From Octopus vulgaris (Eukaryota), in assembly GCA_951406725.2 (NCBI GenBank), contig OX597814.1:53258001-53322000 (forward strand): a stretch of DNA of 64,000 bases, given 5' to 3'. The notes beneath the pieces were generated by a model that ran no database searches, was not told the origin of the DNA, and saw nothing but the letters and a program-made list of their open reading frames with translations. Below, one piece after another: positions 145 to 62,445 of the stretch (position 1 is its first letter; every line of letters begins with the position of its first letter). The translations under genes were made by a program, and so were the position numbers.

Positions 145-889
145 TCATAATTCCTTTTGCAAAACATCTAAAATCTAATTTTATTAAATCCATTAGAAAC
201 ATTATTAAAAAAAACTGTAAAACTCTGAATATCCAAAAATATTTAATAACAAAATGATCAGATTTGGATTTTCAGTATCTTCTAACCTATTTAGGATGAT
301 CTCTTCATTTAACAATAGGAAACTAGACCAATTCTACAATTAAAAAAACCCTTCTAATATACATGCTAACCCCAATAATTCCATATCAAATAACAACAAT
401 TATCAGAATAACATAACCTCAATTACCCTTAATACATATAGATATAACAATAGAGTACCAACTAATAGTTCTAATTGTAATTGTAGAAACCCAAATACTT
501 GTGAGGTAGAAGGTAACTGTAAAATGAAAGCAACAATTATTACCCATAATCTCTCAAAATTTATTCACATTGGGTGTACACAAAATCCTTTTAAATTAAG
601 ATTAAATAATCATAGATCATCTTTTAATGACCCTAGAAAAGAAAATAGCACAGGTCTATCCACAAAGGTTTGGCAACTGAAAAGAAGCAATATAGATTAC
701 TTGATTTCTTGGAAAATTCTTTTTTCAACTCCACCCTATAGGCATAATAATAGGATCTGCAAATTATGCCTAGAAGAGAGTTATAAAATAATGAAAATGA
801 ACGGTTCTCATGTAAATTCGAGAGATGAAAAAGCTTCTTCTTACAGACATATGTCAAAATTCCTTTTTCTCTACCAAGTTTTAAATTAA
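145..889 (+). mobile_element. Penelope-like retroelement 3' remnant (linker, Cys motif and GIY-YIG endonuclease), disrupted
   Basis: In frame with ORF 524-889, upstream sequence reads SSFNNRKL...*...SNCNCRNPNTCEVEGNC, followed by FIHIGCTQNPFKLRLNNHRSSF...STGLSTKVWQLK...WKIL...CKLCLEE...NSRDEKASSYRH. This matches the GIY-YIG C-terminus of Penelope-like elements. There is an in-frame stop at 341-343 and a frameshift further upstream. Confidence 0.85.
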
Positions 890-21824: not shown

Positions 21825-22719
21825 CGTGGTATGATCAATAAGTCTCCGGACTGTTACCATAGTAACGAAGGTAAAGTATGCAGAGTAAAGCCACTTGACA
21901 CAGATTGATCCTAAACTCTGCTGTGCATGCGCACTAAGTGTTAACGTTGTAGTTCACTTCCGATGTTTACAGCAGTACTTGGAAGTGACTTGTGTAGCGC
22001 GTGTTCGTCGCATTGACCATGACACAGAAAGATGAGCAGGGAATCTGCATCAAATTTTGCCAAGAGTTTGGCGATACCTGCTCAGAGACCTAAGCAAAGT
22101 TTTCAAAAAGTTTTCATCGTTCTCGATACAATTAAAGATATCTTCTGCACCTGAACCCGAGTGTCTTCTTGATCAGCTGAAAGCAGTTTCGACACAAGCT
22201 TGGCAGACACGCGTCTCATACCCAAATCTTCAGTGATAATGGACTGAACTGAACCGTAACTAATTTGCACATCCTCTGATGACTCACGGATGGTGATTCA
22301 ACGATTTCCCCTCACAGCTGCACGCACATCTGCAATGTTTTTTCTCAGTTCTGCTGGTTGCGGCTCTCCCAGATCGTTCGTCAAAATCGATATTTTTTCA
22401 GCCATTTTGGAAACATCTGAATCACTTATTCACTTGTGTGCGGTTCCTACACTTCTATTCATACACTTTCTGCAACTTTGCGTAGGCCTCTGAGCAGGTA
22501 TCTGCATGACTGCTTTCTCTGTCATGGTCAATTCCACGATCACACGCTACATACCTTCCTTCCAAGCGCTGTTGTAAACATCAGAAGTGAGCTAGTACGT
22601 TAAAACTTAGTGCGCATGCACATCAGCATTCAAGGTCAATCTTTGCCAAGCGGCTTCACTCGGCGTGCTTTTGTTCATTACTATGGCAACAGTCCGGATA
22701 CTTACTTGATCAGACCTCG
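21825..22719. mobile_element. Fold-back mariner derivative with two 5' ends (~270-bp imperfect inverted arms, TA flanks)
   Basis: TA|cgtggtatgatcaataagtctccggactgttaccatagtaa...ttactatggcaacagtccggatacttacttgatcagacctcg|TA. The + strand encodes MTQKDEQGICIKFCQEFGDTCSET; the - strand has a longer N-terminal remnant reaching EDLGMRRVSAKLVSKLL. Confidence 0.85.
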
Positions 22720-23659: not shown

Positions 23660-24324
23660 TTCCATCTACCTGCTAGACTTGCAAGGCTCCTCTTCCAAAA
23701 TTCACTTGTCTGTGACGAAACATACTCCTCCTGTTCTGACCTCGTCTACAGAATTCATATTTTTTACGTCCAAATGATTTTGAAGACTGCGGAATAAATG
23801 ATAATCAGATGGGGCAATGTCCGGCAAATATGGTGGGTGGGGAATCGTTTTCTATTGAAACTGCTCCAGTCTTTGGAATGCCATCCTCACTGTATGGCCG
23901 AGCATTATTTTAATAGAACACATTTCGTCTTGAAATCAAAGATAGTCGTTTTTCTTCTAGCGCCGACTTAAGCCGCTCAAGCAGTAGATCTCCTTTGTTA
24001 TCGTTTAGTTTGGGTTTAAAAGTTCAAAGAGGGCTAAACCTTTCATATCCGCCTAAACAGATAACAAAACCATACGTGGGTGAAGCCTTTATTAAACTCA
24101 TAAAGCAAAATATGCCGAATATACTCCTTTATCACTTCCATTATAGCTTTGAAAAAATAACTGTTAAAATCGAACTGCACTCTTTAAAACTTGCGCTAAG
24201 AATAAGGACAAGGTAAAACTACTACTTGCTTTTATAGCAAGTTGATGCAGGTAGTTTATCCCGCCTCCACTCCGACTTTTAGTTCATGGAACTGATAAAC
24301 CGCATTATTTATGGGATGACCCAA
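23660..24324 (-). mobile_element. Internally deleted mariner element
   Basis: - strand terminal inverted repeat (TIR)-like TA|TTGGGTCATCCCATAAATAATGCGGTTT. MEVIKEYIRHILLYEFNKG starts at 24141, and NNARP and IPHPPYLPDIAPSDYHLFRSLQNHL lie downstream. Confidence 0.85.
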
Positions 24325-24336
24325 TATATATATATG

Positions 24337-24388
<52 letters not shown>

Positions 24389-24651
24389 TATAATATATAT
24401 ATGTATATATACACACATATATTAATCAATCAATATAGGGTGGCAAAAAAAAATTTTGTAGAATTCTTCTGCCACCAGCGGCCTAGTAGGAAAAAATTAA
24501 ATAGTCATAAACCATTTTTACGTTCAACATCACAATCAAGGAACGGCCATAATAGGCCATTCACCCACTAGAAATAACAGCCAAAAGCTTTAACCGCAAA
24601 ATAACATTAATTCCGTAAACCAGGAGAAAATTGAAAAACTTTTACCCTGTA

Positions 24652-24758
24652 ATTTCTTAGACGATGCACCGTTTCATCTACCGTTTAATGGTAAACTAAC
24701 CTGATTAAATTAAATCAAGCCAATCCACCATAGGCCCTTAGACTCATCAGTAAGAAAT
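24652..24758 (-). ncRNA. Type I hammerhead ribozyme, copy 1
   Basis: AUUUCUUA-CUGAUGA-GUCUA...UAGAU-GAAA-CGGUGCAUCG-UC-UAAGAAAU; predicted cleavage 3' of the C at 24660. Confidence 0.88.
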
Positions 24759-25146
24759 AGCCAAGTCGGAACAGATATTTTTCACGAGGCATTCCTCTTG
24801 CTACCTCGGCAATATCTGACCTAAAATTTTCAAATCGTCGCACTCGCGCCAAATTTATCGGCAGCAAATAAATATAAGCCACCGATTCCATTACGGAACT
24901 AACCAGAAAATTCATAATTAATCAATCAATATAGGGTGGCAAAAAAAATTTTGTAGAATTCTTCTGCCACCAGCGGCCTAGTAGGAAAAAATTAAATAGT
25001 CATAAACCATTTTTACGTTCAACATCACAATCAAGGAACGGCCATAATAGGCCATTCACCCACTAGAAATAACAGCCAAAAGCTTTAACCGCAAAATAAC
25101 ATTAATTCCGTAAACCAGGAGAAAATTGAAAAACTTTTACCCTGTA

Positions 25147-25253
25147 ATTTCTTAGACGATGCACCGTTTCATCTACCGTTTAATGGTAAACTAACCTGAT
25201 TAAATTAAATCAAGCCAATCCACCATAGGCCCTTAGACTCATCAGTAAGAAAT
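25147..25253 (-). ncRNA. Type I hammerhead ribozyme, copy 2
   Basis: Same sequence as copy 1; cleavage C at 25155, 495 nt from copy 1. Confidence 0.88.
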
Positions 25254-25640
25254 AGCCAAGTCGGAACAGATATTTTTCACGAGGCATTCCTCTTGCTACC
25301 TCGGCAATATCTGACCTAAAATTTTCAAATCGTCGCACTCGCGCCAAATTTATCGGCAGCAAATAAATATAAGCCACCGATTCCATTACGGAACTAACCA
25401 GAAAATTCATAATTAATCAATCAATATAGGGTGGCAAAAAAATTTTGTAGAATTCTTCTGCCACCAGCGGCCTAGTATGAAAAAATTAAATAGTCATAAA
25501 CCATTTTTACGTTCAACATCACAATCAAGGAACGGCCATAATAGGCCATTCACCCACTAGAAATAACAGCCAAAAGCTTTAACCGCAAAATAACATTAAT
25601 TCCGTAAACCAGGAGAAAATTGAAAAACTTTTACCCTGTA

Positions 25641-25747
25641 ATTTCTTAGACGATGCACCGTTTCATCTACCGTTTAATGGTAAACTAACCTGATTAAATT
25701 AAATCAAGCCAATCCACCATAGGCCCTTAGACTCATCAGTAAGAAAT
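25641..25747 (-). ncRNA. Type I hammerhead ribozyme, copy 3
   Basis: Same sequence; cleavage C at 25649, 494 nt from copy 2. Confidence 0.88.
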
Positions 25748-25947
25748 AGCCAAGTCGGAACAGATATTTTTCACGAGGCATTCCTCTTGCTACCTCGGCA
25801 ATATCTGACCTAAAATTTTCAAATCGTCGCACTCGCGCCAAATTTATCGGCAGCAAATAAATATACGACGATTTGAAAATTTTAGGTCAGATATTGCCGA
25901 AGTAGCAAGAGGAATGCCTCGTGAAAAATATCTGTTCCGACTTGGCT

Positions 25948-26054
25948 ATTTCTTACTGATGAGTCTAAGGGCCTATGGTGGATTGGCTTGATTTAATTTA
26001 ATCAGGTTAGTTTACCATTAAACGGTAGATGAAACGGTGCATCGTCTAAGAAAT
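25948..26054 (+). ncRNA. Type I hammerhead ribozyme, copy 4
   Basis: Stem I atttctta (25948-55) / taagaaat (26047-54); CTGATGA 25956-62; stem II gtcta/tagat; GAAA 26031-34; stem III a-cggtgcatcg-t; GTC ending at 26046. Confidence 0.9.
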
Positions 26055-26442
26055 TACAGGGTAAAAGTTTTTCAATTTTCTCCTGGTTTACGGAATTAAT
26101 GTTATTTTGCGGTTAAAGCTTTTGGCTGTTATTTCTAGTGGGTGAATGGCCTATTATGGCCGTTCCTTGATTGTGATGTTGAACGTAAAAATGGTTTATG
26201 ACTATTTAATTTTTTCCTACTAGGCCGCTGGTGGCAGAAGAATTCTACAAAATTTTTTTTGCCACCCTATATTGATTGATTAATTATGAATTTTCTGGTT
26301 AGTTCCGTAATGGAATCGGTGGCTTATATTTATTTGCTGCCGATAAATTTGGCGCGAGTGCGACGATTTGAAAATTTTAGGTCAGATATTGCCGAGGTAG
26401 CAAGAGGAATGCCTCGTGAAAAATATCTGTTCCGACTTGGCT

Positions 26443-26548
26443 ATTTTTTACTGATGAGTCTAAGGCCTATGGTGGATTGGCTTGATTTAATTTAATCAGG
26501 TTAGTTTACCATTAAACGGTAGATGAAACGGTGCATCGTCTAAGAAAT
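26443..26548 (+). ncRNA. Type I hammerhead ribozyme, copy 5
   Basis: CTGATGA 26451-57, GAAA 26525-28, GTC ending at 26540. A C-to-T change in stem I keeps pairing as U-G. Confidence 0.87.
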
Positions 26549-26673
26549 TACAGGGTAAAAGTTTTTCAATTTTCTCCTGGTTTACGGAATTAATGTTATT
26601 TTGCGGTTAAAGCTTTTGGCTGTTATTTCTAGTGGGTGAATGGCCTATTATGGCCGTTCCTTGATTGTGATGT

Positions 26674-26682
26674 ATACACACA

Positions 26683-26759
<77 letters not shown>

Positions 26760-26769
26760 ATATATGTAT

Positions 26770-26803
<34 letters not shown>

Positions 26804-26875
26804 ATATAAAATATGTATACACACACACACATATATACATACATATATATATATATATATGTGTGTGTGTATGTA

Positions 26876-61923: not shown

Positions 61924-62445
61924 CAGGGTGAGGCAGGGAGGATGGTCGTTTTTGAAATGGCTATTTACTCAGCCCCAGTGGGAGGTAGATATGTCCGATA
62001 GGTACCATTCCGTCTGTGAGTTTTAGAAATTGTTTTTCTTTTCAAATGAAACCATGGCACTGTGGACGATAGAGCATCAAGTGTTTGCCTATGACAGTTA
62101 CGTGAAGAATAGCGAGTCTGTCAACAGTTCAGCGTGAGTTTCGGCGCCACTTCAACATTCACCGAAATCAGGCTGTTCCCACTCGTAACACAATCTTACG
62201 GTGGGTGAATGCACTTCGTACACGAGGTACACTAATGAATAGAAGACCGATAGGAGCGCCACGAACGGTACGGACCCCGGAAAATGTGGAAAAAGTCAGG
62301 CAAGCTTTGATACAGAGTCTAAATAATTTTGCTCGGAAGCATTCCACTGAACCATGCATCAGTAATCGATCGGTATGGCGTATTTTGCATGAAGACTGCA
62401 TTTCCACTCGTACAAATTGGTCATTGGGCAACAGTTGAAACACCA
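61924..62445 (+). mobile_element. Tc1/mariner 5' part (DUF4817-type HTH transposase), frameshifted
   Basis: TA|CAGGGTG terminus; ATG at 62054 MALWTIEHQVFAYDSYVKNSESV/TVQREFRRHFNIHRNQAVPTRNTILRWVNALRTRG...GAPRTVRTPENVEKVRQA...VWRILHED. Confidence 0.85.

Follow-up and report, generated by a model that had tools for sequence, protein, structure and literature searches.

Non-LTR retrozymes and the RNA circles associated with them are established (Cervera and de la Pena 2020, PMC7229834), and a descent of retrozymes from Penelope terminal repeats (pLTRs) has been argued by Li et al. (2026, bioRxiv 10.64898/2026.07.22.740005), who report units of 51 to 972 bp and ascribe their tandem copies to local amplification. 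A tail and an inverted arm are known features of Penelope insertions (Craig 2021, PMC8557442; Arkhipova 2013, PMC3846280), and the anole element initiates in vitro at two internal sites, with both strands cut and extended (Frangieh 2024, PMC11167929). In the sections of this literature that bear on the question, the integration of retrozymes and the origin of tandem, inverted, and tailed Penelope insertions are treated as open (bioRxiv 10.64898/2026.07.22.740005, PMC8557442, PMC7229834, PMC3846280). A further hammerhead-bearing repeat of ~500 bp, pDo500 of Dolichopoda cave crickets (PMC2837043), has been described, with a double-hammerhead mode suggested for it.

Within the 64,000-nucleotide stretch of the Octopus vulgaris genome analyzed here (contig OX597814.1; the window), 2.9 minus-strand units and 1.64 plus-strand units diverge from a central junction in (TA)n surroundings (Table 1). 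Repeat analysis of the window gave a tandem period of 495 with 2.9 units at 24416-25865, inverted against 25866-26673, in agreement with the tandem and inverted ~495-bp array of a preliminary description. Unit positions are numbered from u1 (26047), the first base 3' of the predicted cut. The unit has no coding capacity, as had been claimed, and its longest ATG open reading frame in circular reading is 69 amino acids (aa). Its GC content of 0.37 lies under the 45 to 50% retrozyme ceiling, its predicted fold deviates from chance by z = -5.5, and LTR-like flanks were absent from the loci inspected. Rfam microRNA matches in the window were rejected as artifacts of the microsatellites and the inverted junction. 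The 15-nt target duplication at the array is weakened because TATACACACATATAT also occurs at 24375, inside the left microsatellite. Elsewhere in the window, two 159-nt inverted arms (21873-22031 and 22513-22671, 81% complementary, 481 nt apart) possibly represent an old miniature DNA transposon, and a helix-turn-helix fragment (62106-62438, plus strand; DUF4817, E 4e-8) probably derives from a decayed DNA transposon.

Table 1. Features of the octopus retrozyme array (window positions) and of the co-resident Hydra-clade element
Feature	Position	Strand	Remarks
(TA)n-type microsatellite target, left	24324..24422	.	repeat analysis
Left copy, probable target-site duplication TATACACACATATAT, 15 nt	24408..24422	+	1-2 nt shared with element
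Left arm, 2.9 units	24421..25865	-	RNA-sense 3' end is site B (outer); 5' end is inner junction (unit position 279)
Site-B motif CCTATATTG	24431..24439	-	directly after conserved B hairpin, directly before outer junction
Type I hammerhead 1	24652..24758	-	predicted cleavage after 24660
Type I hammerhead 2	25147..25253	-	predicted cleavage after 25155
Type I hammerhead 3	25641..25747	-	predicted cleavage after 25649
Head-to-head inner junction	25865..25866	.	two inferred cDNAs joined; unit positions 279 and 315, no overlap
Right arm, 1.64 units	25866..26673	+	RNA-sense 3' end is site A (unit position 133)
Type I hammerhead 4	25948..26054	+	predicted cleavage after 26046; extended stem II, self-complementary stem III
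Cleavage-to-cleavage monomer, 494 nt, 37% GC	26047..26540	+	predicted RNA or circle; unit-position reference
Type I hammerhead 5	26443..26548	+	predicted cleavage after 26540
Site-A motif CCTTGATTG	26659..26667	+	directly after conserved A hairpin, directly before outer junction
Right copy, probable target-site duplication	26673..26687	+	sequence match to left copy
(TA)n-type microsatellite target, right	26682..26860	.	repeat analysis
Intact young Hydra-clade element	L101 3414-8754; G000:C2:168270400-168275800		955 aa, ~5.3 kb

The array shares with the metazoan non-LTR retrozymes, as far as these are portrayed in the cited sections, non-coding tandem units with one type I hammerhead each, a GC content below 45%, a highly paired predicted RNA, dispersed multimers, co-occurring Penelope-like elements, and a unit size inside the 51- to 972-bp range. 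The earlier statement that the unit is longer than animal retrozymes is contradicted by this range (bioRxiv 10.64898/2026.07.22.740005) and by pDo500 (PMC2837043). Type I hammerheads occupy at least two consecutive units, loci are dispersed, and target duplications, when present, exceed 4 bp. In these testable features, the element behaves as a non-LTR retrozyme; it inserts in Penelope style but is not autonomous. The octopus hammerhead differs from those of metazoan retrozymes by a stem II extension of ~65 nt and the absence of G10.1-C11.1. Cephalopods are absent from the species samples of Li et al. in the parts of that work that list them, and the published literature that we searched holds no cephalopod retrozyme; Repbase and Dfam lay outside the scope of that search, and the family may already be catalogued there.

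The window array represents a single insertion from a dispersed non-LTR retrozyme family that has at least 988 + 1,693 units in subfamilies. A protein resident in this genome has its nearest named relative in an octopod, in keeping with a cephalopod host. In the 2.8-Gb genome, the 20-mer around the cleavage site has 988 exact matches (control, 0), and a pattern designed to count 5' truncations at the cut site brought to light a subfamily with a different base before that site (1,693 further matches); this base is A in all 100 matches listed, giving a GUA (GTA) triplet. A sister family has a unit of ~475 bp that is ~72% identical to the main-family unit. The main family is young; its loci number about a thousand or more and lie on many chromosomes with unique flanks. 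We regard it as highly improbable that the arrays are a satellite grown locally through unequal crossing-over, or an assembly artifact: a period-3 pattern in an 18-unit array and distorted arms at two loci (L042, L144) would fit such an origin, but dispersal over many chromosomes, unique flanks, fixed ends, and target duplications speak against it. Assembly error, named in the preliminary description as a finding that would overturn the array, is also opposed by contigs from independent sequencing runs, in which an opposite-strand joint is seen, together with a 495-base repeat joint in another organism (D). Contigs from organisms B, C, and D have words in common with the unit; contig depths, which could stem from DNA, were not counted as a sign of expression. 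Whereas pDo500 is described as a bulk satellite of ~5% of the genome (PMC2837043), the octopus family consists of short dispersed insertions with transposition signatures.

Each of the five hammerheads contains CUGAUGA, GAAA, and GUC; stem I has 8 bp, the base of stem II has 5 bp, and stem III includes the segment ACGGUGCAUCGU. The fifth copy has one G.U within stem I. All five had been placed correctly, with C17 at the base preceding each predicted cut. The "full core" attributed to them stands for these motifs and stems but not for the stem II base pair 10.1-11.1, which in the window is G.U instead of the normally conserved G-C. Across the family, CUGAUGA/GAAA/UC is intact in 215/217 copies scored, and a G-C pair at 10.1-11.1 is found in 0/217 and 0/248 copies, its place being taken by G.U, A-U, or A.A. 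This pair varies naturally, and a U-U variant is on record (PMC3088659, in the part concerned with that pair); the missing G10.1-C11.1 therefore lowers the expected rate but does not preclude activity. The proposed check against Rfam gave a divided answer: Hammerhead_1 matched three of the five copies, but weakly (22 bits, E 0.18), under the gathering score of 34, probably because stem II is extended by ~65 nt. The general hammerhead pattern (CUGANGA, GAAA, NUH, three stems) is present in full.

The predicted lowest-energy fold of the monomer is inactive (-39.3 versus -35.4 kcal/mol for the active fold), which further qualifies the claim of a full core. Two stem III segments are predicted to pair as a 12-bp duplex (-18.9 kcal/mol), and stem III is fully self-complementary in 302/314 copies, a count in which a few overlapping loci may appear twice. 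Even the UGCA-to-UAUA change in the would-be stem III loop keeps self-complementarity, which is the pattern expected of a ribozyme selected for dimer action; dimer-acting hammerheads with such a stem III are established (PMC4209133, as far as cited here). N7 and H17 (C17/A17) vary among subfamilies, while the remaining core and the pairing of stems I to III are kept, with compensatory changes in these stems between subfamilies. The whole-unit fold is kept by three subfamily groups; 97.5% of positions remain paired and 12/106 pairs are changed on both sides, a weak covariation signal, as the structure was derived from the same eight sequences of about two lineages. Against the model favored below stands, in addition to the absent G10.1-C11.1 pair and the inactive fold, the finding that eight of nine Xenopus retrozymes assayed did not cleave in vitro, according to the relevant section of Li et al. 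(bioRxiv 10.64898/2026.07.22.740005).

The outer ends of the insertions were mapped in 82 main-family loci, comprising the 40 best matches, 29 chromosome-1 loci taken regardless of structure, and 13 GUA loci, the latter being the two-armed ones among the first 100 matches listed. Out of 143 outer (RNA 3') ends, site A accounts for 65 (mode u131, ~131 nt past the cleavage site), site B for 74 (modes u231-236, ~236 nt), and 4 lie elsewhere, with an A-B spacing of 105 nt. Both sites directly follow a conserved hairpin and the motif CCTWDATTG, which in either sister family occurs nowhere else. The preliminary description had taken the array to start and end at arbitrary points of the unit and proposed a genome-wide search for permuted ends; with 139/143 outer ends at A or B, neither is borne out, and only the inner junction is placed almost uniformly. 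The same proposed search was to establish copy number and (TA)n flanks; copy number is high, and TA-rich DNA adjoins 133/141 outer ends. Exact B-(TA)n junctions number 943 genome-wide; the pattern for site-A junctions overlooked the commonest form, and its 445 matches are not comparable with this figure. Target duplications of 14 to 15 nt were identified in 6 of 69 loci, the window included, where the microsatellites are imperfect; the others were uninformative or had no match.

In two-armed loci, one end of each kind is the rule: 57 of 61 are A+B (45/48 in the best-match and chromosome-1 loci, 12/13 in the GUA loci), one end is odd in the other 4, and A+A or B+B pairs do not occur, which departs from independent site choice at p = 1e-17. 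Four of the 57 calls are doubtful: the arm is distorted in L042 and mosaic in L144, L063 adjoins Ns, and the arms of L142 come from two families and lie 1.5 kb from each other. In L1 twin priming, two primers at one break likewise produce a divergent inversion, the first at the poly(A) tail and the second at variable internal sites; the octopus priming sites, in contrast, are both internal and fixed. In the sister family, 12/23 loci are two-armed and all 12 are A+B, one A end carrying a deletion; this sample is biased toward an A end, since its query ended at A, and three of its loci resemble copies of one insertion.

Nineteen of the 69 loci are one-armed (15 B, 4 A), and two more carry a short B stub. 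Four one-armed loci (L033, L038, L061, and L124) hold almost exactly 2, 4, 2, and 2 whole units, with both ends near site B. The arms at L042 3275-3578 and L144 1193-1481 have many short deletions replaced by TA, or are mosaic with another repeat, and may reflect template switching or a polishing artifact. At L142 861-3298, a main-family B-ended arm and a sister-family A-ended arm surround a 650-bp tandem duplication of host DNA, possibly through capture of host sequence in a single event or through two neighboring insertions. Unique DNA upstream of the divergent L142 arm was considered as a parental UTR and rejected, having matched only itself; the arm belongs to the 475-bp sister retrozyme.

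In each of the 57 loci that have exactly two arms, the arms diverge in head-to-head orientation. The distribution of inner ends along the unit is nearly uniform (KS p = 0.084, n = 142), and the overlap is mostly 0 to 5 nt. Neither arm is contained in the other in 4/51 loci, which indicates that both ends were primed on the template; fold-back copying cannot give such loci. An inverted arm made by fold-back self-priming of a single cDNA, or from an antisense template, with no second target priming, is improbable on further grounds. The A arm is longer in 20 and the B arm in 31 of the 51 loci, most junctions are asymmetric, and fold-back gives no reason for a second end at the other fixed site. 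This route, which has been proposed for rotifer Penelopes in the pertinent part of PMC3846280, would account for a few junctions that are symmetric at hairpins (overlaps of 18 and 21 nt) and for three cut-site junctions that are perfect palindromes; run-off at the sense-strand cut site, however, implies a sense template. Two-site priming of the Penelope type is very probably how the retrozyme is mobilized.

Most arms cross the cut site (50/51 A arms) and 65/102 are longer than one unit; the usual template was thus circular or uncleaved. In the main loci, substitutions per site amount to 0.0044 within an arm, 0.0044 between opposite arms, and 0.0189 between loci; the GTA subfamily gives 0.0014, 0.0037, and 0.046. 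Locus-private variants comprise 7 fixed in all copies of both arms, among them u191 of the window array, 128 singletons, and 15 present in some copies. Such homogeneity within loci favors one monomeric circle as the template. The opposite arm is closer than the nearest other locus in only 12/39 loci; in the remaining 27, another locus is as close, so that a pair of RNA molecules from one master variant would explain them just as well. In the longest array, of 18 units, variants follow a period-3 pattern, a sign that it may have expanded locally afterward.

In the sampled loci, the cut site is only marginally enriched among inner ends (3/142, p = 0.057). At three independent loci, the arms meet in a blunt, palindromic junction located precisely at u1. 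Of these loci, two are u131-to-u1 plus u1-to-u231/236, the exact run-off products of a monomer, and the remaining one has multi-unit arms, both ending at the cut site. By this indirect evidence, the junctions suggest a sense template and point to cleavage in vivo by a hammerhead that lacks G10.1-C11.1. Rather unlikely, in our estimate, is the same two-site priming on long uncleaved read-through transcripts of arrays, with a slow ribozyme and no circles in transposition. The non-canonical 10.1-11.1 pair and the inactive lowest-energy fold would agree with this, as would the locus whose multi-unit arms both end at the cut site, which would follow directly from a partly cleaved multimer, and variants common to subsets of copies; in addition, the anole element inserted in vitro without need for hammerhead cleavage, according to the section of PMC11167929 cited. 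Against it, the units of an array are nearly identical, divergence between loci is 4- to 30-fold greater, private variants are fixed in both arms, and singletons dominate, so that a monomer bottleneck fits better than ordered heterogeneous arrays. We therefore lean toward a circular rather than an uncleaved multimeric template. The argument for rolling-circle copying from arbitrary ends fails at the outer ends, but homogeneity and arms that run through the cleavage site favor the circle itself.

A candidate source of the enzyme was approached from window 344-889 (plus strand), a 3' fragment with the GIY-YIG region of an older Hydra-like Penelope element, which has many decayed relatives in the genome. 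The young autonomous family found from this starting point is 38% identical to the fragment. Its intact copy at L101 (Table 1) encodes a protein with RWR (RWK-like), DKT, CxCX5C, CxxC, and CxH motifs, an Asn-rich linker, and a C-terminal endonuclease, followed by a ~2.4-kb 3' region and a ~175-nt tail, and its hammerhead has a ~85-nt extended stem II and a palindromic stem III. Motifs, target, and hammerhead are those of the Hydra clade, and the length exceeds the <3 kb typical of the clade. Other open frames of the family span 960, 962, and 994 aa, and Pfam barely recognizes the protein. As in the Hydra clade (Craig 2021, PMC8557442, where this clade is treated), insertions target (TA)n; two fixed ends lie ~207-211 (A') and 382 nt (B') past the element's own cut site, and A'+B' ends occur in 5 inverted loci of 20 fetched. 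The exceptions are L103, which is B'+B' and is nested in an inverted duplication of larger size, and L113, where B' is paired with an odd end. At L101 3200-3330, a further repeat ends at (TA)n and starts with the apparent core of a minimal hammerhead; more hammerhead-bearing, TA-targeting families may exist.

The terminal region of this co-resident family has no significant DNA similarity to the retrozyme unit: local alignment of the unit with the Hydra-type 3' region scored 28 against a shuffle mean of 26.7, and BLASTN of the unit against 50 Penelope-like loci retrieved with Hydra-type queries gave nothing below E 0.25. Only the 20 nt preceding site A bear a weak resemblance to the A' site (top 0.3% and 2.8% of windows, a post hoc comparison). 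The partnership is therefore a putative one, and we give an even chance that the sampled Hydra-clade family drives the retrozyme.

It is quite improbable that the arrays are pLTR fragments of an autonomous Penelope-like element yet to be found rather than an independent RNA replicon. According to the sections cited of PMC8557442 and PMC3846280, pLTRs have the tail, the inverted arm, and the hammerhead; Xenopus retrozymes are reported by Li et al. as homologous to pLTRs (bioRxiv 10.64898/2026.07.22.740005), and the Penelope-like elements inspected were of the Hydra type. However, Hydra-type queries revealed no Penelope-like ORF adjoining the unit in the 69 loci fetched, the two tblastn matches being kilobases off; the 50 Penelope-like loci gave no match; arms consist of successive units, as many as 18, and none continues into an ORF; and the whole-unit fold is kept in the three subfamily groups. 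A match to the terminal repeat of an autonomous Penelope element was to reclassify the array as a pLTR array; as no Hydra-type element inspected has the unit as its terminal repeat, it is not reclassified.

With the Penelope-like elements that encode an endonuclease (EN+), the octopus insertions share, in the sections drawn on, an inverted arm, truncated 5' and arranged head to head, together with an extension confined to one end, internal initiation at two sites, AT-rich targets, target duplications of short length, and a palindromic stem III. The head-to-head arm, the one-end tail, and the AT-rich target are thus all present, and an RT and GIY-YIG ORF joined to the unit was not found with Hydra-type queries. 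Unlike these elements, the unit has no ORF, its tail is ~105 nt instead of 30 to 40 nt, and each arm is a multimer built from the same short unit. In the published accounts cited, the Penelope tail is called optional, whereas the octopus retrozyme has one of each end in 57/61 loci, the other 4 being odd-ended. Neither the cited sections of PMC7229834 nor those of Li et al. describe priming at fixed sites, A+B pairing as a rule, arms placed head to head, or insertions that run off at the cut site, and our search of the published literature, with repeat databases outside its scope, did not find this family, the strict one-of-each rule, variants common to inverted arms, or hammerhead-site run-off insertions.

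Taken as a whole, the element is probably a non-autonomous non-LTR retrozyme mobilized in trans by a (TA)n-targeting Penelope-like RT/GIY-YIG protein through two-ended target-primed copying. The array would be transcribed, and the hammerhead, folded from sequence and probably dimeric via its self-complementary stem III, would cut the RNA at the predicted site, as the three run-off insertions suggest; by analogy, monomers would be ligated into circles. The duplications suggest that the enzyme would cut both (TA)n strands in a staggered manner, leaving ~12- to 15-nt 3' overhangs. Both DNA 3' ends would then prime reverse transcription within the same sense RNA, one at A and one at B; the fixed ends and the A+B rule are observed, and the enzymology is inferred. 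Each cDNA would make a variable number of laps, after which the two ends would be joined in the head-to-head junctions observed, often with a 0- to 5-nt overlap. On a cleaved linear monomer, both cDNAs would run off at the cut and yield palindromes of 131 + 231/236 nt, as seen. The earlier proposal of a recent retrozyme amplified by a Penelope RT gains stronger support than was first argued for it from two-site priming, (TA)n targets, duplications, head-to-head arms, and an autonomous element with like ends.

More tentatively, and at slightly less than an even chance, a dimeric Penelope-like enzyme may use two non-interchangeable sites of a single circular RNA to prime both ends of one staggered break; arrays would then arise already multimeric and inverted, through a single rolling-circle event. 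Such asymmetric two-ended priming may also explain in general how the Penelope tail and head-to-head structure originate, and the insertions would record in vivo cleavage by a hammerhead without G10.1-C11.1. Because the family is young and short and has about a thousand loci or more, its insertions amount to a mapping experiment performed by nature, yielding the two priming positions, the one-of-each rule, the stagger of the cut, and the run-off products at the ribozyme site. Their anatomy argues against antisense self-priming and purely local amplification and makes the mechanistic question directly testable. The shape of the insertions indicates two-sided copying from one break, for such elements and probably for Penelope-type retrotransposons generally.
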